A stretch of 64,000 nucleotides of DNA from Gammaproteobacteria bacterium (GTDB taxonomy: Bacteria; Pseudomonadota; Gammaproteobacteria; UBA4575): NCBI GenBank assembly GCA_965222615.1, contig CBDCUI010000008.1, positions 192,001-256,000 on the forward strand, given 5' to 3'. Position 1 is the stretch's first letter. Every line of letters begins with the position of its first letter. Below, piece after piece: positions 294 through 34,617 of the stretch. The translations under genes were made by a program, and so were the position numbers. Below the pieces are notes generated by a model. That model ran no database searches and was not told the origin of the DNA. It saw nothing but the letters and a program-made list of their open reading frames with translations.

Positions 294-378
294 TTGAAGA
301 AGCTATAATTTATTCTGCCTTAATTAATTTTCTTAGGTCGTTAAAAAATAATCTCAAAATAAATCAGAGTTTCCCTAA
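294..378. repeat. Internally deleted ERIC/RPE-like palindromic element (copy A)
   Basis: Imperfect terminal IR ttgaagaagctataatttattctg / caaaataaatcagagtttccctaa. Contains gttaaaaaataatctcaaaat, nearly identical to the left arm of the copies at 30851 and 34381. Core missing; overlaps the dsrP stop. Confidence 0.7.
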
Positions 379-1569
379 GTTAAGGGCCTTGTCGGATAGA
401 CTTTCTGGTAGAAACTCCAGTACGGCAATACCAATTGCAACGATGATTAACGATAAACAGATTCCTCCAATACCTAGTAGCACTTCGAAAATACTCGGCG
501 CGTATTCAGCTACTACTCCATCATAAAAACTACTAGTAGTTTCCATGCCAGGGAACAATATTAAAGGATAAGCTTGTCCACCGATAACAATTACATACAG
601 TTGTGCAAGACCACCGATAATGACTAGACAAGCTGCCAACACCAACATGCTTCTAGACTGACTCATTGGCTTGATAAAAACTAAGGCTAGAGGAATTAAA
701 CAACCGATAATGATTTGTACTACCCAAAATAAAAAGGTGTAAATACCTCCATCTAACAAAATAAAGCGTTCGATCCCATGGTGTTCTGTGGCGTATAAAT
801 TAGTTAGGTGGTATGCCAATACAAAATAAAGTACGGTCGCCACAAAAATACCTAATAGTTTTTTAAGTTTATCCAAAATCGCATCACCCAGTGGACGATG
901 AGTCCATTTATAGCTAGCCATTAAAACTAAAATAAAAATCGCAAGACCAAATGCAAATGACATAATGATAAATAAAGGTGCCATAATGGCAGCATCATAA
1001 GCTTGGCGTGCCACCAAAAATCCAAAAATGGATCCGGTACCGGTGGTGAGTATGAGTCGCCAGATGAAAGCAAAAAATCCAGCAGGCTTACTGAACTTAT
1101 TCATTTTTCTTTCCATCATCATCCATAGATAGATCGCAACGATGAGGAGAAAGCCGGTATACAAAAAGATATTCCAAGCAAAAATTGATTTGAAATTATA
1201 TTTAGTCATAGCGACGATCAATCGATCGGGTCGACCCAGATCTAATACCAATACTATTAAGCCACCAACTAGCAAGGCGATAGCTAATAAGGCTGAGAGT
1301 CTTGCCAATGGTTTGTAGTCAGTTTTTCCAAATACCGACGATATCGAAGCGACGTTTAATGCACCGGATGCTGCAACGATTAAGAAAATTGCGATTACAT
1401 GTGGGAAACCCCATACGATTTGATTAGTCATACCGGTAATATGATGGCCTTCCACATCCATATGGTGCGCAGCTAAATAGCCCACTAAGGCAGCAAGCCC
1501 AAGTGCGCCTAATAAAATCCAATATTGGATGGATTTGGCGTCAATGGATGAGAATCTAGTAGTTTCCAT
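364..1569 (-). CDS. dsrP: DsrP, NrfD/PsrC-family membrane subunit
   Basis: Polytopic; WGFPH and DLGRPDR NrfD motifs; position in dsrMKLJOP. Confidence 0.95.
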   Translation of the reverse strand: METTRFSSIDAKSIQYWILLGALGLAALVGYLAAHHMDVEGHHITGMTNQIVWGFPHVIAIFLIVAASGALNVASISSVFGKTDYKPLARLSALLAIALLVGGLIVLVLDLGRPDRLIVAMTKYNFKSIFAWNIFLYTGFLLIVAIYLWMMMERKMNKFSKPAGFFAFIWRLILTTGTGSIFGFLVARQAYDAAIMAPLFIIMSFAFGLAIFILVLMASYKWTHRPLGDAILDKLKKLLGIFVATVLYFVLAYHLTNLYATEHHGIERFILLDGGIYTFLFWVVQIIIGCLIPLALVFIKPMSQSRSMLVLAACLVIIGGLAQLYVIVIGGQAYPLILFPGMETTSSFYDGVVAEYAPSIFEVLLGIGGICLSLIIVAIGIAVLEFLPESLSDKALNLGKL

Positions 1570-1600
1570 TAGTTTAGTTCACTTTTTTAAGTAAGCTTTG

Positions 1601-1727
1601 ATTTAAATTGTAGATTTTGTTCAAAGACGCGGCGCAGTGCTTTCAAGAAGCGCAGTTTACATAAAAGTAAATGAGCATCGGAGAAAGTGCTGCAACAATG
1701 TATTTGGACAAAAGATGCATTTTAAAT
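1601..1727. repeat. ERIC/RPE-like palindromic element (copy B)
   Basis: IR atttaaattgtagattttgttcaaa / tttggacaaaagatgcattttaaat; core gcag-tttac-ataaaa-gtaaa-tgag at 1652-1675; includes the dsrO stop. Confidence 0.8.
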
Positions 1728-2489
1728 ACCTTGATAACGGACACCGGTGTTAAGCCCCAAGTCGGCTCTTATCTGAGTACCACCATGTTTTTCTAATTGT
1801 TTTGAAATTTCACTATTGGGGTCGTTTAAGTCACCAAATAAAAGCGCCTTGTGGCCATCTTTGGCACAGGCCTCGGCACAAGCGGTGTTGTTGTCACCGC
1901 GGTCCACTTTGTGTACACACAAAGTGCAACTTTCGACACAACCTTTACCGCGTGGCGAATGCGGTAGTTGATCTTGTAATGGTTCATGTATAAACGAGCG
2001 TGCTTTATAGGGGCACGCCATCATGCAATAACGGCATCCAATACAGGTATGTTTGTTGACTAAGACGATGCCATCTTCGCGTCTGAATGAAGCACCGGTT
2101 GGGCAAACATCTACGCAGGGCGGGTATTCGCAGTGTTGGCACATCATCGGTAGTGAAATAACGTGACCAGTTTGTTTATCGGTTATATTAAGCTTGCGTA
2201 TCCATTGTGCATCGGTTTCTGGTCGATCCAAGCTCCAGAGTCCATGTTCCTCATTACATGCCGTCACACAGGCATCACAATCTTCTTGACAGAGGTTAGT
2301 ATTGACTAACATGCCCCAACGTTGTTGGTTGCTAACGGCTTGGTCGGCCGGTTTCGCACTAGTAGTTTGATAGAGCATGATACCTGGTGCAATCGCTAAA
2401 CCTCCTAAAACAACGGCACACCGGAGAAATTCACGTCGTTCGAGATTAGTTTCTCCTTGGTTTAATTTTGGATCTAATTTGTAACGCAT
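1722..2489 (-). CDS. dsrO: DsrO, periplasmic 4Fe-4S protein
   Basis: Tat signal ERREFL; CQHCEYPPCVDVCP, CIGCRYCMMACP and CTLC clusters. Confidence 0.95.
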   Translation of the reverse strand: MRYKLDPKLNQGETNLERREFLRCAVVLGGLAIAPGIMLYQTTSAKPADQAVSNQQRWGMLVNTNLCQEDCDACVTACNEEHGLWSLDRPETDAQWIRKLNITDKQTGHVISLPMMCQHCEYPPCVDVCPTGASFRREDGIVLVNKHTCIGCRYCMMACPYKARSFIHEPLQDQLPHSPRGKGCVESCTLCVHKVDRGDNNTACAEACAKDGHKALLFGDLNDPNSEISKQLEKHGGTQIRADLGLNTGVRYQGI

Positions 2490-2491
2490 GG

Positions 2492-2977: not shown

Positions 2978-3001
2978 TTTTAATTATTATTTAAGGAGTT
3001 T

Positions 3002-3150
3002 GGGGTGCTTCTAAAAATAGTAGATTTTTTTTCAATGTAAATAAAAGACTTTACACAGACTGGTATTTTACTTTCAGGCAAGGCAAAAATGCGCACAGGG
3101 AGGGAGTTTACATGAAGTAAATGACCGACTGAGCACATGTCTAATAATTC
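3002..3150. repeat. ERIC-like element, right end truncated (copy C)
   Basis: Left end ggggtgcttctaaaaatagtagattttt resembles 3151-3180; caggcaaggc...ggag-tttac-atgaa-gtaaa-tgac resembles the ERIC core GGAGCTTACATAAGTAAGTGAC. Confidence 0.7.
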
Positions 3151-3295
3151 GAGGGTATTTCTAGAAATAGTGGATTTTTTGTCAGAGCAAGGAAGTACCG
3201 CGCGCAAAACCGCAGTGTATATGTCAATACATGAGGATTTGAGCACGGGACTGACGAAGCTATGGCGGAAAAGACACATTTTTAGATGTACCCTC
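3151..3295. repeat. RPE-1-like palindromic element, 145 bp (copy D)
   Basis: IR gagggtatttctagaaat / atttttagatgtaccctc; core accgcagtgtatatgtcaatacatgaggatttgagcac; the + frame reads RKTAVYMSIHEDLSTGLT, like the RPE1 peptide; overlaps the dsrL stop. Confidence 0.8.
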
Positions 3296-5243
3296 AGTGG
3301 CCGAGTGCCATGTCGATGTACCCCGTCGGACAAACATCCGCACAAATATGGCAACCAATACATTTGCTGTAGTCGGTATCAACGTAACGACCGGTTGTAG
3401 ACTGATCTTTTTTAACCCGAAACACAGCATCTTGTGGGCAATACACCACACAGTTATCACATTCAAAACACATGCCGCAGCTCATGCAGCGATTGGCTTC
3501 TTCGATGGCTTGTTCTTCCGTGAAGTTTTTCATGCGTTCTTCAAAATGGCCTAGGACTTGTTTGGCATCCGGGCCGTGTTCTTCACGAAGGTTGCGTGGA
3601 GTAAATGGAAAGTGGCCTAAAAACAATTCGTCGTGTGCAATGATTTCGTGTTCTGCACGATCTTCATAGTTGTGCACAGAAAATTCAGATTGATCCGTAC
3701 CTCGATGAGAACCGTGCTCATAATTTTCAGGTTCTAGACCAAATTCTTGTAGCTTCTCTAATAGATCGAAGTGATGTACATCGACTTTGGGGCGTTTAGT
3801 GATTTCTTGATCGGTAAGAAAGTAATCAATACTTTCTGCAGCAATCGATGCTTGGCCGATGGCGGTGGTTAAAAGATGAGGGCGAATGATATCGCCACAT
3901 ACAAAATGACCCTCACGGTTGGGTATTGCATAAAATTTATCGGCATCAATTAAACCGCGACCGTTATCAAATTCTTCTAGGCCATCAAGGTCACCACCTT
4001 GGCCGATTGCAGATACGATTAAATCACACTCAATTTCAAATTCGGTGCCCTCAATCACAACTGGACGATTATCTTCCATTTTACATTCGGCCATACGTAA
4101 TGCCGTGGCACGCCCATCCTCACCAAGGATTACTTTTACTGGCATTACTCCATCTTTAATTTTCACGCCTTCACGCATGGCATCATGTACCTCGTGTTCG
4201 GCAGCAGTCATTTCTTCACGCGCAAATAGTGATGTAAGCGTTACCTCTGCACCCTGGCGTGATGCGGCATAGGCAGCATCATGTGCAACATAGCCACCAA
4301 TAACATGTTCAGGAGCTTCATCTTGTTTTAGCTTTTCAATTTTTCCGAGTCGGCGCGCAACCGAGACCACATCAATTGATGTATCACCGCCACCCACACA
4401 TACCACGCGATCTGCAGTAACCTGTAATCGACCGGTATTGAATGCTTCTAAGAACTTCACTCCAGATACACAGTTAGGTGCGTCGCCCCCTTCAACAGGA
4501 AGACCGCGTCCAGATTGACAACCTATGGCCCAAAGTACGGCATCAAATTCTTCTTCAAGTTCTTTTACAGAGATATCTTTTCCTACACGCGTGTTTAAAC
4601 GTGTTTCAATCTGGCCCATATCTAAAATGCGCTGAATCTCGTGATCTAAATAATTTCGTGGTGTACGGTAACCGGGAATACCATAACGAAACATTCCACC
4701 AAGCTCTTCATGCTCATCAAAAATTACACTAGCATGGTCTTTGCGGCGTAATTGATACGCTGCAGCGAGTCCTGCAGGTCCGCCACCGATAATGGCTATT
4801 TTTTTTCCAGATAATTCGGTTGGCGCTTCAAACTTAAAACCTTGTTCAAAGGCACTGTCACCGATGTATTGTTCAACGGCATTGATACCGACAAAATCTT
4901 CAACATGGTTACGGTTACATCCATCTTGACAAGGAGCAGGGCAAACACGCCCCATCATGGATGGAAACGGGTTTGCTTCGGTTGAACGTAAGAAGGCATA
5001 TTCTTGCATAGACATCTCTGCCGGCGGCTTTTCAATACCGCGCACAATTTGTAGCCAACCGCGAATATCTTCGCCGGATGGGCAGCTACCTTGACAGGGT
5101 GGTGTGCGATGCACATAAGTCGGACACTTATGTGAATGATCGGCTTCAAAAATCTTATCGCCAAAATTTCCCCACTCATAATCTCCATCTTCAAACTTTC
5201 TGAAAGTTAGTTTGTGAGTTAGTTGTTCCTTCGGGGTTGCCAT
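3294..5243 (-). CDS. dsrL: DsrL, iron-sulfur flavoprotein NAD(P)H:acceptor oxidoreductase (operon copy)
   Basis: PPCQGSCP, GRVCPAPCQDGCNR, FAD motif GGGPAG, second Rossmann GGGDTS, C-terminal CMSCGMCFECDNC/CIGCHICADVCP. Confidence 0.96.
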   Translation of the reverse strand: MATPKEQLTHKLTFRKFEDGDYEWGNFGDKIFEADHSHKCPTYVHRTPPCQGSCPSGEDIRGWLQIVRGIEKPPAEMSMQEYAFLRSTEANPFPSMMGRVCPAPCQDGCNRNHVEDFVGINAVEQYIGDSAFEQGFKFEAPTELSGKKIAIIGGGPAGLAAAYQLRRKDHASVIFDEHEELGGMFRYGIPGYRTPRNYLDHEIQRILDMGQIETRLNTRVGKDISVKELEEEFDAVLWAIGCQSGRGLPVEGGDAPNCVSGVKFLEAFNTGRLQVTADRVVCVGGGDTSIDVVSVARRLGKIEKLKQDEAPEHVIGGYVAHDAAYAASRQGAEVTLTSLFAREEMTAAEHEVHDAMREGVKIKDGVMPVKVILGEDGRATALRMAECKMEDNRPVVIEGTEFEIECDLIVSAIGQGGDLDGLEEFDNGRGLIDADKFYAIPNREGHFVCGDIIRPHLLTTAIGQASIAAESIDYFLTDQEITKRPKVDVHHFDLLEKLQEFGLEPENYEHGSHRGTDQSEFSVHNYEDRAEHEIIAHDELFLGHFPFTPRNLREEHGPDAKQVLGHFEERMKNFTEEQAIEEANRCMSCGMCFECDNCVVYCPQDAVFRVKKDQSTTGRYVDTDYSKCIGCHICADVCPTGYIDMALGH

Positions 5244-5295
5244 GAATTACTCCTTAATAATTAAGCTCCATTCAAAATACCTTGTTAAAATAATA

Positions 5296-6840: not shown

Positions 6841-6842
6841 AA

Positions 6843-7610: not shown

Positions 7611-7680
7611 ATTTCATGCTTCGTACAAATACGAACTAAAATTGTTTTTGAGAGGCAGACTAGCTGCCATTGCTCAATTT

Positions 7681-7748
7681 ATTTAAGGGGGTTCTGATTT
7701 ATTTAGTACATTTTTTTACGCAGCATCAAAAATCAGAATGTCTTAAAT
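7681..7748. repeat. Internally deleted ERIC/RPE-like element (copy E)
   Basis: IR atttaagggggttctgattt / aaatcagaatgtcttaaat resembles the family termini; no core; 1 nt from the dsrC stop. Confidence 0.6.
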
Positions 7749-7749
7749 G

Positions 7750-8082
7750 TTATACACAACCCGTTGGTTTTGGCAGTCCAGCATATTTACAAGCTTGTTT
7801 TGCGGGACCATACGGAAACAGTTCGTATAAATATTTGCTGTTGCCTTTATCTTTGCCAAGTTTTTTGCCAATTGCTTTAGTAAGTACGCGTACAGCGGGA
7901 GCAATTTGGTATTCTTCGTAGTATTCGCGTAAGAAGTTAATAACTTCCCAATGGTTGTCTCCAAGTTCTGCACCATCGGCTGCAGCCATTGCTTCGGCTA
8001 ACTCTGGTTGCCAATCATTGAGGTTAGCTAAATAACCTTCTTCATCAGTCTCGTAAGACTTGCCATTTACTTCTAAGGGCAT
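7750..8082 (-). CDS. dsrC: DsrC sulfur carrier
   Basis: C-terminal ACKYAGLPKPTGCV with both cysteines (CX10C). Confidence 0.97.
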   Translation of the reverse strand: MPLEVNGKSYETDEEGYLANLNDWQPELAEAMAAADGAELGDNHWEVINFLREYYEEYQIAPAVRVLTKAIGKKLGKDKGNSKYLYELFPYGPAKQACKYAGLPKPTGCV

Positions 8083-8109
8083 ACGACTCTCCTGTGTAAT
8101 AAAAATTAA

Positions 8110-8418: not shown

Positions 8419-8426
8419 AATGATTT

Positions 8427-12905: not shown

Positions 12906-13093
12906 GTGAAGTCCTTATGCAAAATCATGAGTTGAGGTCATTTGAAGAACTTAAAAAAAAGTTAAGTGAACGCGCACAACAAGGAGAAATGTTTTTTCGT
13001 ATGGACGTGCGACCACCTTTTCAAGATACTCCTGAAAATTGGGAGGATATTCTAGAGTCTGTATTTACATCGGTGAATAATCAGCCTGAGTAA
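12893..13093 (+). CDS. Small hypothetical protein of the dsr-associated cluster (66 aa)
   Basis: Overlaps the upstream stop; ends 7 nt before cas6; DVRPPFQDTPENWED. Confidence 0.75.
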   Translation: MLWLSEVLMQNHELRSFEELKKKLSERAQQGEMFFRMDVRPPFQDTPENWEDILESVFTSVNNQPE

Positions 13094-13100
13094 GCTACGA

Positions 13101-13790
13101 ATGTATTGGCAAGACAAAGAGGAAAAAGATAAACAATATGTCGTACCGGACGATATCGTTGATTTATCTTTCAAAGTACAGTGTAAACAATTGCCATTAG
13201 ACCATGCTTATGTGTTGTCACAAACCATTCAGAAAGAATTACCCTGGATTGCAGATGAACCGCAAGCGGGTATTCATTTAATCCATGGTGCAGAGTCAGG
13301 CAATGGTTGGATTCGACCCCAAGAACCTGATGCAATTTTGAATTTGTCTCGGCGCACACGTTTTATGTTGAGATTACCTAAGCAGCGTATTGACGATGCA
13401 AATCTCATTGCAGGTAAAACCCTAAAAGTAGGCGGACATGAGTTGGTGCTGAGCAATCCACAGCAGAAACTTCTTTCCCCGCTGACTACCATATTTGCGC
13501 GCTATATCATTACAGAAAATATTGAAAACGAAGAGGCCTTCTTAGACCAAGCCGCTGAGTTGGTAAAACAAAAAGGGATTCAGGTGACTAAGATGATGAG
13601 TGGGCGCGCCCATGTATTGCGTATGCCGGGACAAAATTTGTCTACGCGTAGCTTGATGATCGATGGGTTGGAAGTGGAGCAGTCAATTTATTTGCAACAG
13701 CAGGGTTTGGGCGAAGGACGTAAAGTGGGTTGTGGGTTGTTTCTTCCCCATAAGGGTATTGACGCAGTGGGACAAGCCCAGCAAAAATAA
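13101..13790 (+). CDS. cas6: Orphan Cas6 (Cmx6/I-MYXAN-like) RAMP endoribonuclease
   Basis: N-terminal LPLDHAYVL; LSRRTRFMLRLP; C-terminal G-rich loop GLGEGRKVGCGLFLP (GhGxxxxxGhG). Confidence 0.88.
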   Translation: MYWQDKEEKDKQYVVPDDIVDLSFKVQCKQLPLDHAYVLSQTIQKELPWIADEPQAGIHLIHGAESGNGWIRPQEPDAILNLSRRTRFMLRLPKQRIDDANLIAGKTLKVGGHELVLSNPQQKLLSPLTTIFARYIITENIENEEAFLDQAAELVKQKGIQVTKMMSGRAHVLRMPGQNLSTRSLMIDGLEVEQSIYLQQQGLGEGRKVGCGLFLPHKGIDAVGQAQQK

Positions 13791-13794
13791 TATG

Positions 13795-13920
13795 CTAGAA
13801 GCCCTGATTTATTCTGAAACTTTGTTAAAAAATATTTCAAAATGCTCATGTATTTACATATACACTCCGCTTTTTCAATATTTTTTGCCTCGTTTCAAAA
13901 TAAATCAAGGCTTCCTTTAG
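13795..13920. repeat. ERIC/RPE-like element (copy F)
   Basis: IR gaagccctgatttattctgaaac / gtttcaaaataaatcaaggcttc; core ctca-tgtat-ttacat-ataca-ctcc. Confidence 0.85.
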
Positions 13921-13999
13921 AAAATTAAAAATCTCCATTTATGGCCTAGTAACTATTATAAAAATTGTTGTTTATATTGTTAGAAGTGAGGAGTGAAGT

Positions 14000-14341
14000 A
14001 TGGGTATGAATGTAAATGGCAAAGAAGTTGAAACTACCGATTCAGGGTTTCTTGTTAATTTAGAAGATTGGAATAAAGAAGTGGCGCAAGTGATTGCACA
14101 AGAAGAAGATGTTGAGCTTACTGATAAGCACTGGGATGTAATTAATTATCTCAGAGACGAATTTGTAAATAATAACGGCAACCAGCCAAACACCCGTACT
14201 ATGGTTAAGGCGATGGCTAAGGCATGGGGCGATAAGAAATTAAATGCCAAGGTCTTATATGATTTATTTCCTGGTAATCCAAGTAAGCAAGCTGGACGTA
14301 TTGGTGGGCTGCCGGAAAGTCGTCGTAAGGGTGGCTACTAG
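14000..14341 (+). CDS. DsrC/TusE-family protein with no cysteine
   Basis: ETTDSGFLVNLEDW, HWDVINYLR, LYDLFP; ends KQAGRIGGLPESRRKGGY. Confidence 0.9.
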   Translation: MGMNVNGKEVETTDSGFLVNLEDWNKEVAQVIAQEEDVELTDKHWDVINYLRDEFVNNNGNQPNTRTMVKAMAKAWGDKKLNAKVLYDLFPGNPSKQAGRIGGLPESRRKGGY

Positions 14342-14483
14342 AACCCATCTCAAAATAAATCTTTTGCATTGATGCTTCGTTCTCGCTTTTCTCAAATGCT
14401 CATTTACTAACGTGTAAACTGTGCTTCTCGAAAAGCTCGGGCCTTGCCTCAAAGCAAAATCTTGAATTTTGAGCTAGGCTCTA
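14339..14483. repeat. ERIC/RPE-like element, 145 bp (copy G)
   Basis: IR tagaacccatctcaaaat / attttgagctaggctcta; core ctca-tttac-taacgt-gtaaa-ctgt; begins with the TAG stop. Confidence 0.85.
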
Positions 14484-14676
14484 AATAGATACACTATGAA
14501 CTAACTGGAAGTTTGTAGAGTAAACCCACATCATTTGTCGTTATGCGGAGTAATAGTGACGTAGCAATCCAGTTAAAAAGTATTCAGATTAAGCTTTACT
14601 ATTTATCCATAGTGGAATACAGACAGCACTAACTAAATCATTAAATTGTTAGATAGAAATTAACTGAGGATTCAAT

Positions 14677-14880
14677 ATGAGTTCGAAACAAGAAAAGATT
14701 CAAAAATTGCTCGACATGCAAAAGAAATTCATTGAGTTGGAGCAAAGTGGTGAAATTACCGCAGCAAATTATTGGGCACCTGAAGATGGTTCTAACCTTG
14801 ATGGATTTAAAGAAGAATATATGAAACTCGCTATGGAAGTGGTGGATGATGCGCATGAAGAAGTAGGTTCATCACGTTAG
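14677..14880 (+). CDS. Small acidic hypothetical protein (67 aa)
   Basis: RBS gagga; followed by a terminator. Confidence 0.8.
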   Translation: MSSKQEKIQKLLDMQKKFIELEQSGEITAANYWAPEDGSNLDGFKEEYMKLAMEVVDDAHEEVGSSR

Positions 14881-14906
14881 ATTAAATTTTCTATCATTAA
14901 TTTTTT

Positions 14907-14939
14907 AAAAAAGGCCACCATTTTTTGGTGGCCTTTTTT
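14907..14939. terminator. Bidirectional rho-independent terminator
   Basis: aaaaaaggccacca-ttttt-tggtggcctttttt between convergent genes. Confidence 0.9.
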
Positions 14940-14971
14940 ATTGAGCGGAACATATTTAATTAAATATCAAT

Positions 14972-15116
14972 ATAATCTATCTCAACATTGTAGATAGCGC
15001 GCTTAGACAAGGCGCAAACTTTTTTCAGAGCGGAGTTTACGAGTAGTAAATGAGCTATCTGAAGAAAGTTTTGCAACGCAGTATCAGCGTGCTAGATGCA
15101 TTTTGAGGTAGATTAT
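14972..15116. repeat. ERIC/RPE-like element, 145 bp (copy H)
   Basis: IR ataatctatctcaa / ttgaggtagattat; acaaggcgc...ggag-tttac-gagta-gtaaa-tgag...caacgcag; abuts the stop of the minus-strand gene. Confidence 0.85.
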
Positions 15117-15784
15117 TAAACTTCACTCCACATTCGTACCAAATTCACATAGACATTATCAATGCGCTTGGTGTCTTCTGACTCGGGATCTTTACGCAAC
15201 ATTTTTTCTCTGGTTTTGCTGAGTTGATACAATAAATTACGTTGTTCATTGTTACGAATTAAGCTTTGTACCCAAGTTACTGCAACTAATCTCTCGCCAC
15301 TGCTTACTTTTGTGACACGATGTCGTGTAGTTGCAGGATACAACACGGCATCTCCGGCATTGGCTTTTATCGCTTGTTCTCCAAAAGGAGTTTGAATAAT
15401 CAACTCGCCACCTTGGTATTCATCTGGAGAATTAAGGAATATGGTTAGCGCAAGATCAGAGCGATAACGTTCTCCTTCTCCCATAATAGGGTCATCTATG
15501 TGCTCCCCATACTGCATGCCTGTTTGATAGCGTGCATAAAAAGGTGCTGCAACTCTGTGTGGCAATGCAGCTCGTTGATATTGAGGGTGTCGCACGAGGT
15601 TATGCATTACGATTTGATTGAGCCCAGCAATAATTTGTTCATTATCAAGCTCTTCATTGTTTTTGACATTTCTTGCAATTTTCCCCGCCGATTGTTTTCC
15701 ATCTCCAAATGTTGCATTCTTTAATAAGTTTTGAACCTGCTGCAGTTCTTTTTCACCCAGAATATGTTCAATCAGGACTAACAT
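15116..15784 (-). CDS. PKHD-type Fe(II)/2OG hydroxylase (PiuC/YbiX family)
   Basis: YGEHIDD, RSDLALTIFL, YQGGEL, HRVTKVSSGER. Confidence 0.9.
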   Translation of the reverse strand: MLVLIEHILGEKELQQVQNLLKNATFGDGKQSAGKIARNVKNNEELDNEQIIAGLNQIVMHNLVRHPQYQRAALPHRVAAPFYARYQTGMQYGEHIDDPIMGEGERYRSDLALTIFLNSPDEYQGGELIIQTPFGEQAIKANAGDAVLYPATTRHRVTKVSSGERLVAVTWVQSLIRNNEQRNLLYQLSKTREKMLRKDPESEDTKRIDNVYVNLVRMWSEV

Positions 15785-15842
15785 TTTTTGTATTTTGCTA
15801 ACAGGCTATACTTAGTAAAGTTTTTCAAATACATATAAGGCA

Positions 15843-16166
15843 ATGATACTTAAAGTTACGATTGATGAAAAAACATTTCCACTACAAGTCGATGATGAAA
15901 TGATACATCGTGGTAGTGATGTATTTAAAAAAATGGATGATGACATGAATCAAGGATGGCAAATGAGTAGAGTTTGGGTAGATAGGCCAAACGATTTGCA
16001 GCGTTGTCAAATTGCCGCAGATAAAATGTTAACGGCTATACAACGAGAAAAAACGGCAACAGTTGGCCTGATGGCTGCATACATCATGTATAAAATACCT
16101 AAAGTTGAAGCGATTGATATCGATACTTCGGGAGATATGACCCTGACTGAAATTGTGACCAATTAA
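15843..16166 (+). CDS. Hypothetical protein
   Basis: 107-aa ORF with RBS taagg; KMDDDMNQGWQMSR. Confidence 0.75.
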   Translation: MILKVTIDEKTFPLQVDDEMIHRGSDVFKKMDDDMNQGWQMSRVWVDRPNDLQRCQIAADKMLTAIQREKTATVGLMAAYIMYKIPKVEAIDIDTSGDMTLTEIVTN

Positions 16167-16367
16167 AAAGTCGTTGGTATTGTTTCTGAGCGGAAATCCT
16201 GCAAAACCAATATTATATAGATTTTTAATCAACACTTTTTCTAGTGTTGTAACCTATGTACTGGCTCGCATTTTATTGCATAATCAGCAATACTAAATTA
16301 CCACAACATGATTTTAATTCTTCCGACAATCTCTAAGTGTCGGAATACCTGTAAGCGGGAGGTATTT

Positions 16368-18296
16368 ATGGCGGAGGAGAAACTCACGTTTCGACGCTAC
16401 AAGGATGGTGATCATATAACGACGCAGTGGAATAGGGATGTTGTTCAAAACGGGCTGTCTGAGATTTGCCCGGCTTATATTCATCGTACCCCTCCATGTC
16501 AGGCGAGTTGTCCTTCCGGTCACGACATCCGTGGTTGGCTCTCTATTGTCCGCGGTATTGATAAGCCCGTTGGTGATACTGCTTGGCAGGAATATGCATT
16601 TCGACGCATGACCATGTCCAATCCGTTTCCATCGGTAATGGGGCGAGTGTGTCCGGCACCTTGTGAAGATGGTTGTAATCGCAATGAAGTAGAAGAAGCG
16701 GTAGGTATTAATTCAGTAGAGCAACATGTAGGGGATTGGGCTTTACAACATGATCTTACTTTCGCTACACCAGAGGCTGATAGCGGTAAAAAAGTTGCCA
16801 TTGTTGGTGGTGGTTGCGCAGGTTTAACGGCAGCTTATTTTCTACGTCAAAAAGGCCATGCCTGTACAATTTTTGATGAGTACGACCAACTCGGTGGCAT
16901 GATGGTGTTTGGTATTCCAGGTTATCGTACCCCGCGCTCAGTGCTTGAAGGTGAGATTAAGCGGATTATCGATATGGGTGTGGAAGTTAAACTCAATACC
17001 CGCGTTGGTACTGACGTTTCCGTGCAAGAGTTAGAGCGGGATTACGATGCAATATTTTGGGGAATTGGTGCGGTTGCGGGTAAGGCCCTGCCTATTCCAG
17101 GTAGCGACGCCGCAAATGTTGTCGATGGCATGTCTTTTTTACGTGCCTTTAATGAAGGACGCCTGCAATTTATCAGTGGACGAATTTTAGTAATTGGTGC
17201 GGGTGACACCGCGATGGACGTGCTGGCTGTGGCACGACGTATTGGCAATATTCATCATGTTACAGAAAAAGATCGTCCGGAAAATGTAATTCTGGGCTAT
17301 ACCGTACACGACGTTGCCGAGGCAGCGCGGCGCAAAGGTGCTGATGTGTGGGTAGTGTATCGACGTCCCATCTCTCAGGCGCCAGCAACCAAGCATGAAT
17401 TGGAAGCGGTAATCCGTGAAGGTGTGGAGATCCACGATGGATTATCTCCTGTAGAAGTAATTAAAGATGAAGAGGGCAAAGCCAAGGCATTAAAGGTGGT
17501 GCCTGTTGATATGGTTGATGGCGAATTGAAAACCAGAGATGGTGAGGAATTTGAAATCGAATGTAGTCTAATTGTCGGCGCAACGGGCCAAACCGGTGAT
17601 TATCGGGGTATTGAAGAATTCGACAATGGGCGTGGCCTAATGGATGCGGATAAAGTCTACAGAGTGGTCGGCAAGCCCGGACATTTTGTCGCAGGCGATG
17701 CAATTAATCCGCATTTATTAACCACGGCAATTGGTCAAGCTTCGATCGCAGCAGAAGGGTTGCATCATTACTTAATGGGAGATGAAATACCGGCTCGTCC
17801 CAAGATTGATTCTCATCATTTTAAATTATTAGATGAATTGCGTGAACGTGAATTAGCACCCACGCAATTTGAACCACAAGAAGTGTGGGGCACCGATTCT
17901 TCAGATTTTGCCGTACATAATTACGAAGATCGTTCCGCTACAGAAATCGCGACTCACGACCAATTACATCTGGCTTACTTTGAAGAAGTTCCCATGAATC
18001 GGCGGGATGAAGCCAATATCACTGCTGATGAAGTGCTAAATAATTTTCAGGAAAGATTTTCCGCACTAGAAGAACAAAAAGCGATTGATGAAGCCGAACG
18101 TTGTATGAGTTGTGGAATGTGTTTCGAGTGCGATAACTGTGTGGTGTATTGCCCTGAAGATGCGATATTTAGAGTCAAAAAAGAGCAGCGTGCAATGGGA
18201 CGCTATGTGGATACCGATTATGATAAATGCGTAGGTTGTCATATTTGCTCAGAAGTCTGTCCGAGCGGCTACATCAAGATGGGATTATCGTATTAA
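16368..18296 (+). CDS. dsrL: Second DsrL paralog, NADP(H)-type motif
   Basis: Colinear with the operon DsrL (HRTPPCQASCP, CMSCGMCFECDNC); GAGDTA and VVYRR; start ATG 16368 after GGGAGG. Confidence 0.9.
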   Translation: MAEEKLTFRRYKDGDHITTQWNRDVVQNGLSEICPAYIHRTPPCQASCPSGHDIRGWLSIVRGIDKPVGDTAWQEYAFRRMTMSNPFPSVMGRVCPAPCEDGCNRNEVEEAVGINSVEQHVGDWALQHDLTFATPEADSGKKVAIVGGGCAGLTAAYFLRQKGHACTIFDEYDQLGGMMVFGIPGYRTPRSVLEGEIKRIIDMGVEVKLNTRVGTDVSVQELERDYDAIFWGIGAVAGKALPIPGSDAANVVDGMSFLRAFNEGRLQFISGRILVIGAGDTAMDVLAVARRIGNIHHVTEKDRPENVILGYTVHDVAEAARRKGADVWVVYRRPISQAPATKHELEAVIREGVEIHDGLSPVEVIKDEEGKAKALKVVPVDMVDGELKTRDGEEFEIECSLIVGATGQTGDYRGIEEFDNGRGLMDADKVYRVVGKPGHFVAGDAINPHLLTTAIGQASIAAEGLHHYLMGDEIPARPKIDSHHFKLLDELRERELAPTQFEPQEVWGTDSSDFAVHNYEDRSATEIATHDQLHLAYFEEVPMNRRDEANITADEVLNNFQERFSALEEQKAIDEAERCMSCGMCFECDNCVVYCPEDAIFRVKKEQRAMGRYVDTDYDKCVGCHICSEVCPSGYIKMGLSY

Positions 18297-18347: not shown

Positions 18348-18686
18348 TTAAACTGCGCTGCCAAACCCTTTATCAACTGCCCCGGCAGGTGCATGCAGTC
18401 CTGCTATTCTACATCCTTGTGCGACTGGCCCACCTGGAAACAAGTCATATAAATATTTCATGCCACCTTTATGATGAAATTTTTCTTCTAATGCATCGTG
18501 AAGTTCGCGCATATTTATTTGGTTGATTTCGTGGCGTGAATAAAATTCTTGCAAGGCGTGAACTACACTAAAGTGGTCCTCGGTTAGAGTTAACCCTTCT
18601 TCGGTGGCTGCTTTGATTGTATCTTCTTCTGTCCAATCTTCAGATATAAACGCACGCGCATAATCATTTTTTATAGATGTGGTCAT
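18348..18686 (-). CDS. DsrC/TusE-family protein with only the internal cysteine
   Basis: LTEDHFSVV, KYLYDLFPGGPVAQGCRIAGL; no penultimate Cys. Confidence 0.88.
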   Translation of the reverse strand: MTTSIKNDYARAFISEDWTEEDTIKAATEEGLTLTEDHFSVVHALQEFYSRHEINQINMRELHDALEEKFHHKGGMKYLYDLFPGGPVAQGCRIAGLHAPAGAVDKGFGSAV

Positions 18687-21777: not shown

Positions 21778-21780
21778 AAA

Positions 21781-26245: not shown

Positions 26246-26273
26246 GTTGCCTCCATTTATATTTAGATAGTGT

Positions 26274-27738: not shown

Positions 27739-28176
27739 ATGTCTGACGATGAGCTGGATTTTAATAGTGGCATGATGGCTTTTGAAGCCAAGCACTTTTC
27801 TCGCGCGATGCAAATACTTTCTCCACTTGCTGAACAAGGCAATACCGATGCACAACATCGTTGTGCAATTATGTATCAAAATGGTTTAGGTGTGGCCGTG
27901 AATCCCGAGGCGGCCTTTAAATGGATGAAAGCCGCCGCTGAATCGGGTCATGATTTGGCCCAACATGGTTTGGGTTTTATGTATATGGAAGGAGATTGTG
28001 TAGAACAAAATGGTGAGGAGGCCGCAAGGTGGTTTACCAAAGCTGCGGAACAGGGGTTGCAAGGTTCTCAAACCACGTTAGCGATGATGTATGAAGAAGG
28101 GCGTGGCGTTAGAAAAGATTTAGAAAAAGCTAAGCAGTGGTATGCAAAAGCAGGCTTTTCCTCTGAAGAAATCTAA
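27739..28176 (+). CDS. Sel1-repeat protein
   Basis: Three Sel1 repeats (AQH..MY..G.GV...A..W..KAAE.G). Confidence 0.92.
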   Translation: MSDDELDFNSGMMAFEAKHFSRAMQILSPLAEQGNTDAQHRCAIMYQNGLGVAVNPEAAFKWMKAAAESGHDLAQHGLGFMYMEGDCVEQNGEEAARWFTKAAEQGLQGSQTTLAMMYEEGRGVRKDLEKAKQWYAKAGFSSEEI

Positions 28177-28340
28177 GGAAGCTCAGATTTATTCTGATAT
28201 GTCCCAAAGAAAGATAAATTAGCAATGATTTCTCAAAATACTCATGTATGCCAAGAAAATAGAGGAAGTATACACTCCGTTTTTTCAAAATCATTTTGCC
28301 TAATCTCAGCCATTTCATTAATAAATCTGAACTTCCTTAG
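28173..28340. repeat. ERIC/RPE-like element with expanded loop, 168 bp (copy I)
   Basis: IR ctaaggaagctcagatttatt / aataaatctgaacttccttag; core ctca-tgtat-(20 nt)-ataca-ctcc; contains the TAA stop. Confidence 0.85.
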
Positions 28341-28376
28341 GTAAAAGAAATTACGTTAAAAGACAATAATCAAACC

Positions 28377-29417: not shown

Positions 29418-29420
29418 AGC

Positions 29421-29545
29421 AGGTAACTCTAATTTATCCTGATACTTTGTTAAAAAAATGTTTAAAGATACTCATTTACTAGTTTGTAAACTCCGCTCTT
29501 TAAACATTTTTTTGCCTCGTTTCAAAATAAATTAGAGCTACTTTA
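29421..29545. repeat. ERIC/RPE-like element (copy J)
   Basis: IR aggtaactctaatttat / ataaattagagctactt; core ctca-tttac-tagttt-gtaaa-ctcc. Confidence 0.85.
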
Positions 29546-29626
29546 AGTTTGTTAGAAAGTATCAGGAGTGTTTTATTTTATTTCAAAACGAGTAGTGGCT
29601 TTGTTAGAAGTTATCATTGAGTCTAA

Positions 29627-30853
29627 ATGACCGATTCGGATATTCAAAACAAACTTGCAGCAGCGAGAACGCGGTTAATTTTAGACAAACCTTTTTTAGG
29701 CGCGCTTGTTTTACGCTTACCATTAGTTGCAGCGGATCCTAAGTGGTGTAAGACGGCAGCCACCGATGCAAAAAAGCTTTTTTATAATCAAGACTATATT
29801 GACGCACTTGATATCCAAGAAACTCAATTTGTAGTAGCCAAACAAGCGCTACATTGCGCACTTTCTCATTTCGCACGAAAACAACATCGAATTAAACAAC
29901 GTTGGGAATTGGCATGTGATTATGCAGTAAACCCACTTTTAATTAACGATGGGCTAAAAGCTCCTCCTGGAACTCTGATGGATGAAAAATTTGAGGGGAT
30001 GACTGCAGAGGAGATCTATCACTATATCGATGAGTTCGATAATGAAGATTCTGATTTTGATAAACAAAACCAAGATGATGACGAAACTCATGACCCCACG
30101 CAAAGGGAAGGCGATAAAGATGAAGATCAACAAACACAGAATTCATCAGTAGTAAATCCAAGTTTAGATATTGATGAGCAGCAAGATCTCGCTCCACGGC
30201 CAGCGGATCTATCACCGCAAGAACAAGAACAACTAGCCATTCAATGGCAGCAACGTTTAGCGGGAGCGGCACAACAGGCTATGCAGGCAGGTAAGTTGGG
30301 GGGCTCCATGGCACGTATGGTAGATTTCATGCTGCAACCAAAATTACCTTGGCGTATGTTGTTGGCAAAATACATGACAGCGAGCGCACGCGATGATTAT
30401 AGTTATTCAAGACCGTCTTCGCGTCGTGGTGACCCTGCAATTTTTCCAAGTTTGCGCAGTGCACAAATTAATATTGCGGTTGGAATTGATATTAGTGGTT
30501 CAGTAGACGATAAAGAAATAAATGAATTTATTTCAGAAGTCGATGCGATCAAAGGCAATGTGCGTGCACGAATTACTTTATTACCTTGTGATGCAGCGCT
30601 TGCTAAAGGGGCGCCATGGATATTTGAGCCGTGGGAAGAAATTGAGTTGCCAAGCGATTTTAAAGGTGGAGGTGGCACTAATTTTTGCCCGGTGTTTGAA
30701 TGGTTAGATACACAAGATCAATATCCAGATCTGTTAGTGTATTTTACTGATTGCCTAGGAACATTTCCTGACGTTACACCCAGTTACCCCGTTATTTGGT
30801 TAGTGAAAGGGAAAGAAGGTCCCCCATGGGGACAACGCATCCAACTCAATTAA
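29627..30853 (+). CDS. DUF2201-type metallopeptidase-like plus VWA domain protein
   Basis: TAATD, ACDYAVN, acidic linker, MIDAS DISGS, GGGGTNF, YFTD; the HExxH position reads KQALH. Confidence 0.88.
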   Translation: MTDSDIQNKLAAARTRLILDKPFLGALVLRLPLVAADPKWCKTAATDAKKLFYNQDYIDALDIQETQFVVAKQALHCALSHFARKQHRIKQRWELACDYAVNPLLINDGLKAPPGTLMDEKFEGMTAEEIYHYIDEFDNEDSDFDKQNQDDDETHDPTQREGDKDEDQQTQNSSVVNPSLDIDEQQDLAPRPADLSPQEQEQLAIQWQQRLAGAAQQAMQAGKLGGSMARMVDFMLQPKLPWRMLLAKYMTASARDDYSYSRPSSRRGDPAIFPSLRSAQINIAVGIDISGSVDDKEINEFISEVDAIKGNVRARITLLPCDAALAKGAPWIFEPWEEIELPSDFKGGGGTNFCPVFEWLDTQDQYPDLLVYFTDCLGTFPDVTPSYPVIWLVKGKEGPPWGQRIQLN

Positions 30854-30974
30854 TGAAACTCTGATTACTGAATATACTTCGTTAAAAAATATCTCAAAAT
30901 GCTCATGTATGTTCATATACACTGCGCTTTTTCAATATTTTTTGCCTTGCCTATTCAATAATCAGAGCTTCTTA
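30851..30974. repeat. ERIC/RPE-like element (copy K)
   Basis: IR gaaactctgattactgaata / tattcaataatcagagcttc; core ctca-tgtat-gttcat-ataca-ctgc; starts with the TAA stop. Confidence 0.85.
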
Positions 30975-31020
30975 GAAATCCGTGTGAAGAATATGTCTGA
31001 TAAATTTTCGATAAAATAAA

Positions 31021-32130: not shown

Positions 32131-32145
32131 TAAAGAAATATTATT

Positions 32146-33579
32146 GTGGATTTTCTTCCTCTATTTCTAGATATAAAAAATAAACCATGCCTAATTGTTG
32201 GTGGTGGGGCTATTGCTGAACGCAAGGTATCTATTTTGAAACGAGCGCAAGCAAAAATTACAATTATCGCACCTGAAATCACACAAGAACTACAACGCAG
32301 AGTAGACAGCAATAGTATTTCTTGGCAGCAAAAAAGCTTTGTAGAGGATGATTTATTAGACTACCAACTCGTAATGGCGGCTACGGATAATCGTGATGTC
32401 AATGCTGAAATAGCAATGCTTTGTCGACAAAAAAATATTTTAGTGAATGCAGCAGATGATGCCAAAAATTGTGATTTCATTTTGCCATCTATTATTGATC
32501 GTTCTCCAGTACAGATTGCAGTATCAACAGGTGGCGCATCGCCGGTATTGGCTAGAATGTTACGTACAAAGTTGGAAAACTGTACGCCTGCAGCATATGG
32601 GGCACTTGCAAAATTGATTGAAGATAATCGAGTGAGGGTAAAAGAAAAATTTGCTAGTGTTAATCAAAGAAGAAAATTTTGGGAGCAAGTGCTACAAGGC
32701 CCAATCGCAGAGTTAGTATTTGCCAATCAAATAGATGCTGCGCAAAAATTGTTAGCAGAAAATATTCAACTTGCTGACAAAAATGAAATTTCACAAGGTG
32801 AAGTGTATTTAGTCGGTGCCGGTCCAGGGGATCCAGACTTGTTGACTTTTCGAGCTTTACGTTTAATGCAGCAAGCGGATGTGGTGGTCTACGACAGGTT
32901 GGTTTCACAACAAATTATGGATTTAGTACGTAAAGATGCTGAACAAATTTATGCGGGTAAGGAACGTTCTCAACATACTTTGCCACAAGAAACCATAAAT
33001 GAGCTTTTAGTGCGTCTTGCTAAAGAAGGAAAACGCGTATTGCGTCTAAAAGGTGGCGATCCATTTATCTTTGGACGAGGAGGCGAAGAGATTGCCACAC
33101 TTATCGATGAGCAAATTCCATTTCAAGTTGTTCCAGGTATTACTGCCGCGACAGGTTGTGCCGCCTATTCAGGCATACCTCTTACACATCGTGATTATTC
33201 TCAAGCCGCCATTTTTGCAACCGGCCATTTGCGAGACGGCACGGTAGATTTGAATTGGGAGATGCTTGCACATAGTAACCAAACTCTAGTTTTCTACATG
33301 GGGTTGCAAGGATTAGAGAATATTTGTGAAAACCTAAACAAGCATGGACTAGATGCGACAACTCCTGCAGCATTGATTATGCAAGGAACAACTACCAATC
33401 AAAAAGTAATTATTGGAAATTTGAATACCTTGCCGAAATTAGTGCAGCAACATCATGTTAAACCACCTACATTAGTCATTATCGGTGCTGTAGTACAACT
33501 ACATAAGAAATTACACTGGTTTAATCCCGAAGAAGACGTGACGGCAGGAGCAGTGAAGTCATTTGGAGCAAAACTTTAA
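32146..33579 (+). CDS. cysG: Siroheme synthase
   Basis: MDFLPLF, VGGGAIAERK, VGAGPGDPDLLT, RLKGGDPFIFGRGGEE. Confidence 0.96.
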   Translation: MDFLPLFLDIKNKPCLIVGGGAIAERKVSILKRAQAKITIIAPEITQELQRRVDSNSISWQQKSFVEDDLLDYQLVMAATDNRDVNAEIAMLCRQKNILVNAADDAKNCDFILPSIIDRSPVQIAVSTGGASPVLARMLRTKLENCTPAAYGALAKLIEDNRVRVKEKFASVNQRRKFWEQVLQGPIAELVFANQIDAAQKLLAENIQLADKNEISQGEVYLVGAGPGDPDLLTFRALRLMQQADVVVYDRLVSQQIMDLVRKDAEQIYAGKERSQHTLPQETINELLVRLAKEGKRVLRLKGGDPFIFGRGGEEIATLIDEQIPFQVVPGITAATGCAAYSGIPLTHRDYSQAAIFATGHLRDGTVDLNWEMLAHSNQTLVFYMGLQGLENICENLNKHGLDATTPAALIMQGTTTNQKVIIGNLNTLPKLVQQHHVKPPTLVIIGAVVQLHKKLHWFNPEEDVTAGAVKSFGAKL

Positions 33580-33612
33580 AGAAGCTCTGGTTTATTAATG
33601 AAATGGTTGTAG
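33577..33612. repeat. Terminal fragment of the palindromic element (copy L)
   Basis: taaagaagctctggtttattaatgaaatggttg closely matches the reverse complement of the right arm of copy I; starts at the cysG TAA. Confidence 0.6.
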
Positions 33613-33719
33613 GGTCGTGTATTACGTGATTAACCGTTTCACGCAAGGGTGCAAGTAATGAGTTGGACGTAGTTGATTATCGCGGTTCTATTTATAAGTT
33701 GGTACAGTGAATAGTGCTT

Positions 33720-34256
33720 ATGGAAATAAAATTTTGGGTATTAATTATATTTACTTCATTGATGGGAATATTTAGCGACACGAACGCATCTGAGCTTGAA
33801 GTAGGTTCAACGGCTCCTGAATTTGAATTATTGGATCAGACGGAAACTACTCATGCTTTATCGAACTACAGAGGGAAATGGGTAGTGGTGTATTTCTATC
33901 CAAAAGACGATACACCAGGATGTACTAAAGAAGCGTGTGAGTTTCGTGATGATATTGTAATCTTACAAAGCCTAAACACCCAAGTTTTCGGTATTAGTGT
34001 TGATAGCACAAATAGCCACGCAAAATTTGCTAAAAAATATAGTCTGCAATTTCCCCTATTGGCCGATACGGAAGGCAAAATTGCGAAAAGTTACGGCGCC
34101 TTAACAAAAGTGGGTCCACTAAAATTTGCTAAGCGACATACTTTTATCGTCGATCCAAATGGGAATTTGGCCAAAATATACCGTAGTGTAAAACCGGCTA
34201 CTCATAGCGATGAGGTCATCGCAGCTATTAAAGATTTACAGCAAACACAAGAATAA
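33720..34256 (+). CDS. BCP/PrxQ peroxiredoxin with N-terminal signal peptide
   Basis: YFYPKDDTPGCTKEAC; hydrophobic N-terminus. Confidence 0.9.
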   Translation: MEIKFWVLIIFTSLMGIFSDTNASELEVGSTAPEFELLDQTETTHALSNYRGKWVVVYFYPKDDTPGCTKEACEFRDDIVILQSLNTQVFGISVDSTNSHAKFAKKYSLQFPLLADTEGKIAKSYGALTKVGPLKFAKRHTFIVDPNGNLAKIYRSVKPATHSDEVIAAIKDLQQTQE

Positions 34257-34281
34257 ATCTGTTACTATTCTTTTTTAATTC

Positions 34282-34617
34282 GCTGAAGGTGTCCTTGGCT
34301 TAGATGGAATCTATGTGCAAGGGTGAAACTGGGAAGTCTGTGTGGATCAGGCGCTGCCCCCGCAACGGTGATTGAGTGATTAGAGAACACTGATTTACGT
34401 TGATACAGCGTTAAAAAATATCTCAAAATGCTCATGTATGTACATATACACTGCGCTTTTTCGATATTTTTCGCCTCGTCTCAACGATAAATCAATGCCC
34501 CCCTTGTGTTCCTTTGAAGTAAGCTTAAAAACCACTGTACCTAGAGTATGGGAAGGTAGCTTACTTAGTTATATTTTTTAAATGTAACGCTCATCAGCCC
34601 GGAGACCGGCCTTTAGT
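34282..34617 (+). promoter_or_regulatory. Cobalamin riboswitch (with an internal repeat insertion)
   Basis: aaggtg...gggaa...gctgcccccgcaacggtga...ccactg...gggaagg...B12 box agcccggagaccggcc; downstream gttgcggcgggc is complementary to gcccccgcaac; precedes btuB. Confidence 0.92.
34381..34505. repeat. ERIC/RPE-like element inside the riboswitch (copy M)
   Basis: IR cactgatttacgttga / tcaacgataaatcaatg; interior nearly identical to copy K. Confidence 0.88.

Follow-up and report, generated by a model that had tools for sequence, protein, structure and literature searches.

ERIC sequences have been used for typing for 35 years. They are imperfect palindromes of about 127 bp that lie between genes, carry TA at their termini and are cotranscribed with their neighbors, and the accessible text of the reviews places them in the Enterobacteriaceae and Vibrionaceae only. 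In Yersinia, the same kind of source reports that ERIC alters mRNA stability in an orientation-dependent manner via an RNase E site (Delihas, 2008; Minnick, 2024). Here we describe a family of hairpin elements in a sulfur-oxidizing gammaproteobacterium, found in a 64-kb stretch of contig CBDCUI010000008.1 (positions 192,001 to 256,000; this whole stretch is called the window, and coordinates are counted from its first base). The host has a G+C content of 39% and carries an oxidative-type dsr operon. These elements appear to belong to the ERIC/MITEPsy1 kind of MITE (miniature transposable element with inverted repeats), which for ERIC had hitherto been placed only in enterobacteria and vibrios. 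We consider it rather probable that the copies are non-autonomous transposable hairpins of a widespread superfamily that includes ERIC and MITEPsy1-like elements, and that their antisense orientation is selected against.

The other close relative, MITEPsy1 of Pseudomonas syringae pv. phaseolicola, has ends GGAAGGTCTGAAAAAGCC, targets CTAG or YTAA and transposes into sacB; the accessible part of the report notes that P. stutzeri, Marinobacter, Klebsiella and a plasmid have sequences like it, suggests that these may be widespread, and holds no orientation or core analysis (Bardaji et al., 2011). Further hairpin repeats of 100-160 bp with a MITE-like character are Correia/NEMIS in Neisseria, RUP in pneumococcus and RPE in Rickettsia. 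According to the accessible parts of reviews, these are cotranscribed and affect mRNA processing, many of them end in TA, and for RPEs insertions into RNA genes have been described. The last property recalls the window family, one copy of which lies in a riboswitch, and the initial annotation saw a likeness of the core to RPE-1; we compared Correia, RUP and RPE by description only.

The hairpin family and its relatives

Thirteen copies or remnants had been listed in the initial annotation, and each of these sites is present, ten bearing a core and three being remnants. All are confined to the first 35 kb, where they lie between genes or within a cobalamin riboswitch. The exact core pattern, written with IUPAC codes, retrieves nine window sites against 0.00 expected (100 shuffles), and the tenth core-bearing copy, 3002, departs from it by one base (GTCA for CTCA); copies are named here by their approximate first position. 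We also built a covariance model of the family, R1, from 131 non-enterobacterial copies, with no ERIC sequence inside. Run with filters off on both strands of the 64 kb, R1 returns exactly the ten copies with 36-88 bits, the next best match reaching 14.7 bits, and finds no copies in 35-64 kb. The best match, copy 34381, scores 88.4 bits on the forward strand and 11.5 bits on the reverse strand, and the orientation of the element is thus well defined.

Each of the full copies forms a single extended, imperfect hairpin with a length of 119-169 nt. The core is laid out as GC, UCA, a 5-bp stem, a loop, the returning stem, CUSC and GC, and the arms bear GCGTTA and GCCTTG. The core stem does switch, as had been proposed, between TTTAC/GTAAA (copies 29421, 14339, 1601, 3002, and 14972) and TGTAT/ATACA (13795, 30851, 34381, 28173, and 3151), a difference of two compensatory pairs, and the loop does vary between 5 and 20 nt, the upper value belonging to 28173 alone and the other nine copies having 5-6 nt. 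The outer arms, described as divergent yet possessing their own inverted repeats, fall into two types, one whose termini resemble TAAGGAAGCTCWGATTTAT and one whose termini resemble CTCAAAATGCATCT; both types share one core within the window, and each full copy folds as a single long hairpin. Arm type and stem type are unlinked among the window copies. Between lineages the termini vary and the core does not. The possibility that the outer arms are host hairpins invaded by a shorter element was rejected, as the riboswitch copy has the usual type 1 arms.

Our core search pattern fixed UCA, CU and a downstream GCCT, and left the GTT of the 5' arm free. In the alignment of 131 cores, neither the unpaired UCA nor the unpaired CU varies, although the retrieving pattern fixed both; the 5'-arm GTT (usually in GCGTTA, and pattern-free) and the 3'-arm GCCT (pattern-fixed) are at least 90% conserved. 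Scanning public genomes with the core pattern plus the downstream GCCT, with allowed gaps of 3-22 and 15-20 nt, yielded at least 122 loci. The gaps are nearly always 4-6 and 17-18 nt, far narrower than allowed, so these loci are relatives and not chance matches. Among those listed, the Pseudomonadota are represented by Pseudomonas, Halomonas, Salinicola, Acinetobacter, Methylophaga, Thiotrichaceae, Granulosicoccaceae and Nitrosomonadales, and the Bacteroidota by Alistipes, Tidjanibacter, Anaerophaga and Marinilabilia; others belong to Chlorobium ferrooxidans, Desulfobacula, Nitrospiria, Oligoflexales and a Bacillus species, and one is in a Rickettsiales metagenome-assembled genome (MAG). Many of the listed loci are in MAGs, and the isolates include C. 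ferrooxidans, Anaerophaga, Marinilabilia and the Bacillus species. The neighboring genes elsewhere are ordinary ones with no common function (e.g. uvrB, thrC-recJ, fadAB, acrAB, ruvB, mutL). The suggested tie to sulfur operons is therefore lost when other genomes are considered, where copies adjoin housekeeping genes in many phyla; the window elements are best read as mobile repeats, not as sulfur-specific regulators.

The resemblance to ERIC that had been noticed proved well founded. The printed ERIC consensus, in the accessible table, contains gcgtt, tca-cttac...gtaag-ctcc and gccttg (Delihas, 2007), and the signature gcgtt / tca-stem-loop-stem-ctcc / gccttg is common to the window family. 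When R1 is applied without filters to 50 kb from E. coli K-12, it gives a single significant match (44.4 bits, E 1e-9; the next at 11 bits), which lies in the metR-metE spacer and agrees with the printed consensus. On these matches ERIC is a member of the same superfamily as the window copies. By position, the latter are likewise imperfect palindromes of about 127 bp between genes in transcribed regions, cotranscribed with their neighbors in the dsr operon, in short same-strand gaps and in the riboswitch. They do not qualify as ERIC sensu stricto: ERIC has the stem CTTAC/GTAAG and different termini, similarity to the enterobacterial consensus is below the reach of BLAST (a blastn search with a window copy against 5,426 complete E. 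coli genomes gave no match with E up to 10), and the host is a sulfur oxidizer, with relatives in many phyla. The metR-metE ERIC itself (27914-28017 of the E. coli segment, L124) lies on the metE strand about 40 nt upstream of the metE start codon, and is sense to this downstream gene of a divergent pair. In the literature that we searched, which did not include the primary ERIC papers, neither a strong bias toward the sense orientation nor ERIC relatives across phyla are described. A full-text search for the core words returned unrelated primers only, and the accessible text of a Thiomargarita MITE paper and of a 2024 MITE survey gives neither a sequence nor an orientation that can be related to the window family.

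MITEPsy1 resembles the family in its CTAG or YTAA targets, family members sit on plasmids of the P. syringae group, and a few members carry GGAAG-TCTGA type terminal repeats like its own. A Pseudomonas family member used as query retrieved 14 plasmids, 13 of them from Pseudomonas and 11 of those from the P. syringae group. R1 gives 70 bits to an element on a P. amygdali pv. aesculi plasmid (L125), which has CTAG on both flanks, and 50.9 bits to a P. syringae pv. helianthi plasmid copy. Some 50 nt away from the CTAG-flanked element of P. amygdali pv. aesculi (L125 275-344) is a transposase gene of the IS630 family, and the sequence adjoining the gene is unlike the element's ends. The terminal motif GGAAGNTCTGA is found at both ends, with at most two mismatches, in two window copies and at three other loci (L109, L037, L094).

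The flanks are informative about insertion. They read CTAA/CTAA at L037, TTAA/TTAA at L094 and at window positions 7684-7745, and CTAG/CTAG at L125, and in the window the arrangement is C-TA-(AGGAAGC...GCTTCCT)-TA-G. Insertion sites are of the YTAR form (CTAG, TTAG, CTAA, TTAA), and each end of the element bears a repeat of the target's central TA. In the window, flanks like CTAA and TTAG can be accommodated only by a duplication of the 2-nt TA in a YTAR target, not by a 4-nt duplication; overall, insertion at CTAG or YTAA with target duplication, as in MITEPsy1, is what we find, the duplication fitting 2 or 4 nt. It follows from the TA-duplication reading that TAG stop codons were turned into TAA at 28174 and 30851, and the preference for YTAR targets explains why copies often lie on or just after stop codons. 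The location of copy 34381 inside a riboswitch indicates that the element entered a pre-existing functional RNA gene.

In Rfam 15, the elements match no family at its gathering score, and permissive E-values give chance-level hits only; the cobalamin riboswitch is the only window match that passes. The Xanthomonas small RNA family sX9 (RF02228), a Northern-verified 75-nt RNA according to the accessible text on it, was seemingly modeled on part of an element of the ERIC-type superfamily (L002 2504-2544). Its match is to a Chlorobium copy, not a window copy, and scores 30.5 bits, below the gathering score of 44, covering the first 39 and the last 2 of 76 model positions. The sX9 consensus starts with AUGuaC...GuaCACUccGG, which corresponds to the core stem and 3' loop of the window family on the sense strand.

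Orientation and strand asymmetry

All ten core-bearing window copies lie on the strand of their flanking genes, as had been claimed. Four are on the minus strand (one at dsrO/dsrP, two at dsrJ/dsrL, and one at the oxygenase gene 15116-15784) and six are on the plus strand, beside plus-strand genes. To other genomes we applied a uniform procedure: loci were taken with 2.5-kb flanks, genes were called as greedy longest open reading frames (ORFs), and the flanking ORFs were tested against Pfam. Of 72 elements examined, 70 have a gene on both sides and 41 have both flanks Pfam-validated. Among the 70, 33 are sense to co-directional genes and 7 are antisense, with 18 between convergent and 12 between divergent genes; the corresponding numbers for the 41 validated cases are 23, 4, 8, and 6. 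The excess of sense over antisense has a binomial p of 4e-5 for all 70 and 3e-4 for the validated 41, and the sense share of co-directional cases elsewhere is about 82-83% (33/40). The orientation described as strict in the window therefore extends to other genomes as a strong bias with exceptions.

Within 35 kb the copies flip strand with the genes (four minus, six plus), which excludes an orientation linked to replication. In addition, the termini are alike and the flanks include both polarities of asymmetric targets, so insertion itself should not fix orientation. The sole clearly antisense insertion in the window, the remnant at 294 in the dsr operon, is coreless, although this is a single case.

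The two strands differ strongly as RNA. The transcript strand is pyrimidine-rich (41% purine), folds more weakly and is nearly free of Shine-Dalgarno-like words, with 0.24 such 4-mers per copy against 3.25 on the antisense strand. Antisense RNA is the more stable in 102 of 113 copies (mean -35.2 kcal/mol, versus -29.4 for sense); for full-length window copies the ranges are -28 to -44 kcal/mol for sense and -31 to -62 for antisense. DNA parameters rank the strands in the same way, with antisense at -18.2 versus -15.6 kcal/mol and more stable in 106 of 113 copies. The initial annotation had noted that the other strand would form tandem G-A pairs and is never the sense strand. This agrees with the energy asymmetry, but it indicates avoidance of that strand in RNA rather than a selected sense structure.

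Covariation in the hairpin is strong. RNAalifold on a MAFFT alignment gave just 11 pairs, the variable helices being misaligned, and we replaced it with a pair-compatibility structure and a model-based alignment. Two stem positions were left free by the search pattern on both sides: the first pair is U-A in 95, G-C in 35 and broken in 1, and the second is C-G in 115, U-A in 16 and never broken. The closing pair, also unconstrained by the pattern, is G-C in 92, C-G in 24 and A-U in 6. In the model-based alignment of 113 copies, 89.4% of cells pair, compared with 64.6% after shuffling (0/500 shuffles reach the observed value), pairing drops to 35-48% when partners are slid, and double changes occur in 29 of 32 pairs; the alignment is fitted to the model and so favors the structure, yet the margin is large. 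A folded sense RNA would give more G-U than A-C combinations. Overall, the variable helices contain 115 G-U and 118 A-C, and in the eight window copies within the alignment E-value limit the numbers are 4 and 12, so no strand signature is present. The covariation thus does not bear out the proposal that structure is selected at the RNA level, and the sense strand is moreover the weaker folder. The covariation would be explained equally well if the two arms are kept similar as DNA, in the way of a transposon palindrome.

The individual copies and their surroundings

The first 12 kb of the window are filled by the oxidative-type dsr operon, which is encoded on the minus strand and identified through Pfam as dsrABEFHCMKLJOPN, and several copies lie within it. 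The remnant at 294-382 (plus strand, between dsrP and dsrN and antisense to the operon) has both terminal arms and no core, and gives no R1 match; direct reading of the sequence shows that its core was lost by an internal deletion between two TCTCAAAAT-like repeats. Copy 1601 (1594-1727, minus strand, type 2 arms, TTTAC/GTAAA) is a full copy between dsrO and dsrP, with the dsrO stop codon falling within its first bases (R1 65.4 bits at 1616-1717). Copies 3002 and 3151 stand head to tail in the dsrJ-dsrL gap (2998-3291). The former (2998-3148, minus strand; R1 36.8 bits at 3067-3166) is the one with GTCA, and its 3' arm holds about 40 extra bases that include a small TGTAAA...TTTACA hairpin, possibly a nested fragment. 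The latter (3149-3291, minus strand, type 2 arms, TGTAT/ATACA; R1 58.1 bits at 3176-3276) is a full copy directly after the dsrL stop codon. Between dsrC and dsrM is a mini copy of 62 nt, 7681 (7684-7745, minus strand), read directly from the sequence as it lacks an R1 match; it has terminal repeats and a TTAA flank on each side, and retains only the GCGT-A-run motif on the minus strand.

Downstream of the dsr operon, the window holds mixed genes on both strands and the cobalamin riboswitch. Full copy 13795 (13795-13922, plus strand, type 1 arms, TGTAT/ATACA; R1 80 bits at 13803-13904) lies between a cas6-like and a DsrC-like gene. The cas6-like gene (13101-13790; PF09559, E 8e-61) is solitary, with a TauD-like gene on one side and the DsrC-like gene on the other; beside it, the Pfam scan of 1-36.5 kb detected no further Cas family and a whole-window repeat search no repeat array. 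Three DsrC-family genes occur within 19 kb (7750-8082, 14000-14341, and 18348-18686), and two DsrL-like paralogues, at 3294-5243 on the minus and 16308-18296 on the plus strand, have DNA that is 70-75% complementary across stretches of 152-211 nt.

Directly after the second of these DsrC-like genes is full copy 14339 (14341-14484, plus strand, type 2 arms, TTTAC/GTAAA; R1 60.8 bits at 14358-14458). It is convergent with full copy 14972 (14972-15116, minus strand, type 2 arms, TTTAC/GTAAA; R1 77.7 bits at 14996-15098), which directly follows the minus-strand gene for a 2-oxoglutarate-Fe(II) oxygenase (15116-15784). The two are separated by a hairpin region (14886-14981) with weak matches, on both strands, to many Rfam families that contain leaders or terminators. 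This region is probably a bidirectional terminator, in which case both copies would lie in 3' untranslated regions. A promoter and terminator scan of 13000-15900 gave counts near the shuffle means (8 promoter-like sites versus 7.8, and 3 terminator-like sites versus 2.0), and, within the elements, marked a single stem, that of copy 14972 on the antisense strand.

The remaining full copies all have type 1 arms and are on the plus strand. Copy 28173 (28173-28341, TGTAT/ATACA, 20-nt loop; R1 36.2 bits at 28201-28315) begins with the TAA that serves as stop codon of a Sel1-repeat gene. Copy 29421 (29421-29547, TTTAC/GTAAA; R1 67.9 bits at 29428-29531) lies between AAA ATPase and DUF2201 genes, and the stop codon of the DUF2201 gene is the first TAA of copy 30851 (30851-30977, TGTAT/ATACA; R1 82.9 bits at 30860-30961). 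A solo terminal repeat of the 28173 type (33577-33609, no strand assigned) is 85% complementary to 28307-28339, and the sirohaem synthase gene uses its TAA as stop codon. Copy 34381 (34381-34507, TGTAT/ATACA; R1 match at 34389-34490) lies inside the cobalamin riboswitch (34270-34628, plus strand; RF00174, 62.9 bits against a gathering score of 31.5), in the riboswitch's own orientation. The riboswitch is upstream of a TonB-dependent receptor gene (34696-36528, Pfam Plug and TonB barrel). Its aptamer scores well over threshold despite a 139-nt unaligned insert in the Rfam alignment, and the full 127-nt element copy occupies a peripheral region. Beyond these copies, the region 36000-64000 has a G+C content of about 36%, versus 39-43% elsewhere in the window, with long runs of tightly packed same-strand ORFs and zero element copies.

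Competing explanations and significance of the family

The initial interpretation is partly supported: the orientation bias and the kinship with ERIC hold, and RNA-level selection does not follow from them. We propose instead that a DDE transposase of the IS5 or IS630 type, acting in trans, would insert copies in either orientation. Insertions that give the purine-rich transcript, with its far more stable hairpin and about three GGAG/AAGG-type words, would be purged by selection, and the surviving sense copies would be tolerated intercistronic hairpins; these may also work like the Yersinia ERIC, as orientation-dependent sites of mRNA processing or decay.

Several points weigh against this proposal. 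The source genome is represented by the 64-kb window, and we infer the mobility of the copies in that organism from sequence, and purifying selection against the antisense strand from folding energies and from word counts. No transposase whose ends match came to light, either in a Pfam scan of 35 ORFs of the window (1-36.5 kb), which detected no transposase family, or in the plasmid neighbor gene. Only 5 of 119 copies retain GGAAGNTCTGA ends, with at most two mismatches at each end, the ends having diverged elsewhere. MITEPsy1 is 100 nt long with a 4-nt duplication, unlike the 119-169 nt and 2-nt TA duplication of the window copies, and its link to the family rests on ends, targets and plasmid relatives rather than on a comparison with MITEPsy1's own sequence. 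The orientation counts depend on greedy longest-ORF calls, with 9 of the 72 elements that overlap a called ORF kept, and the two Pfam batches were run at different E-value limits (1e-5 and 1e-12). Finally, ordinary MITEs conserve their ends, not their middle. Conservation of the core across phyla reverses what transposase recognition alone predicts, and the MITE reading leaves it unexplained.

A rival view, close to that of the initial annotation, is that the core is a functional, strand-specific RNA module that acts in cis in processing, stability or translation coupling, is recognized by a widely conserved factor (RNase E or the ribosome, for example) and is favored by positive selection when sense, with the arms as mere carriers. 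It would fit the 90-100% conservation across phyla of the unpaired UCA/CUSC and of GCGTTA/GCCTTG while helices covary and termini vary around a constant core, the orientation bias in many phyla, and the RNase E-dependent effect of ERIC in Yersinia that the accessible reviews describe; the sX9 consensus begins exactly at the core-stem AUGUAC on the sense strand, a sub-threshold match that suggests an RNA 5' end in the conserved loop. The lack of a G-U excess, the weaker folding of the sense RNA, the failure to reach the gathering score of any Rfam family including sX9, the absence of a shared function among neighboring genes and the 7 antisense cases out of 40 all speak against it, and we regard it as possible but unlikely. 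Equally tentative is the idea that the 45-nt asymmetric core together with GCGTTA/GCCTTG is an ancient pan-bacterial strand-specific module, carried on transposon arms exchanged between lineages and read by a universal factor as an RNA or transcribed-strand signal, for instance as a processing site whose 5' end falls in the UCA loop, at which the sX9 match hints. If this were true, ERIC, the MITEPsy1-like elements and the dsr-operon copies would be one family, and the core's action in transcripts would drive both spread and orientation.

Orientation could also be fixed at insertion, without later selection, by transcription coupling or by an asymmetric target such as the coding-strand stop context YTAA. 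YTAR targets do overlap stop codons, as in the inferred change from TAG to TAA at 28174 and 30851, and MITEPsy1 is reported at CTAG or YTAA in the accessible text (Bardaji et al., 2011). Yet left flanks in element orientation include CTAA, its complement TTAG and the palindromes CTAG and TTAA, without fixed polarity, the terminal repeats are alike at both ends, and many copies lie tens of bases from stop codons. On the mixed flanks we rejected the asymmetric-target account, and we consider fixation at insertion as a whole improbable. Least probable of all, and in our opinion hardly tenable, is that the element does its work when folded as single-stranded DNA, like IS200/IS605 ends, REP/RAYT or integron attC sites, with orientation following replication or cassette order. 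A long imperfect palindrome with conserved mismatched positions, covariation compatible with DNA hairpins and a strand energy asymmetry that persists with DNA parameters would all suit it. From what is established on leading-strand gene bias in these taxa, however, it would be too low to yield the sense share of 33/40, and the one orientation per replication arm expected of REP/RAYT or IS200/IS605-type elements is contradicted by copies on both strands that flip with the genes. The YTAR/TA flanks, together with the terminal inverted repeats, are in keeping with DDE transposition of the cut-and-paste kind, and the Pfam-scanned ORFs of the window (1-36.5 kb) include no Y1/HUH transposase or integrase gene. 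As to attC, the GCGTTA and GCCTTG arm motifs do not pair like R boxes, copies occur on both strands, and what we take to be the attC box consensus is absent from the family consensus.

One covariance model now ties the repeats of a sulfur oxidizer to ERIC and to elements on plasmids of the P. syringae group. The family obeys a measurable rule, by which the weaker-folding strand, poor in Shine-Dalgarno-like words, is the one found in the transcript in most co-directional cases. The breadth of the superfamily, its conserved asymmetric core and this sense-strand rule merit follow-up. If the transposable-hairpin reading is true, it would provide a candidate transposition mechanism for ERIC-type elements and a general account of how such hairpins persist within essential operons and, more strikingly, within a riboswitch.

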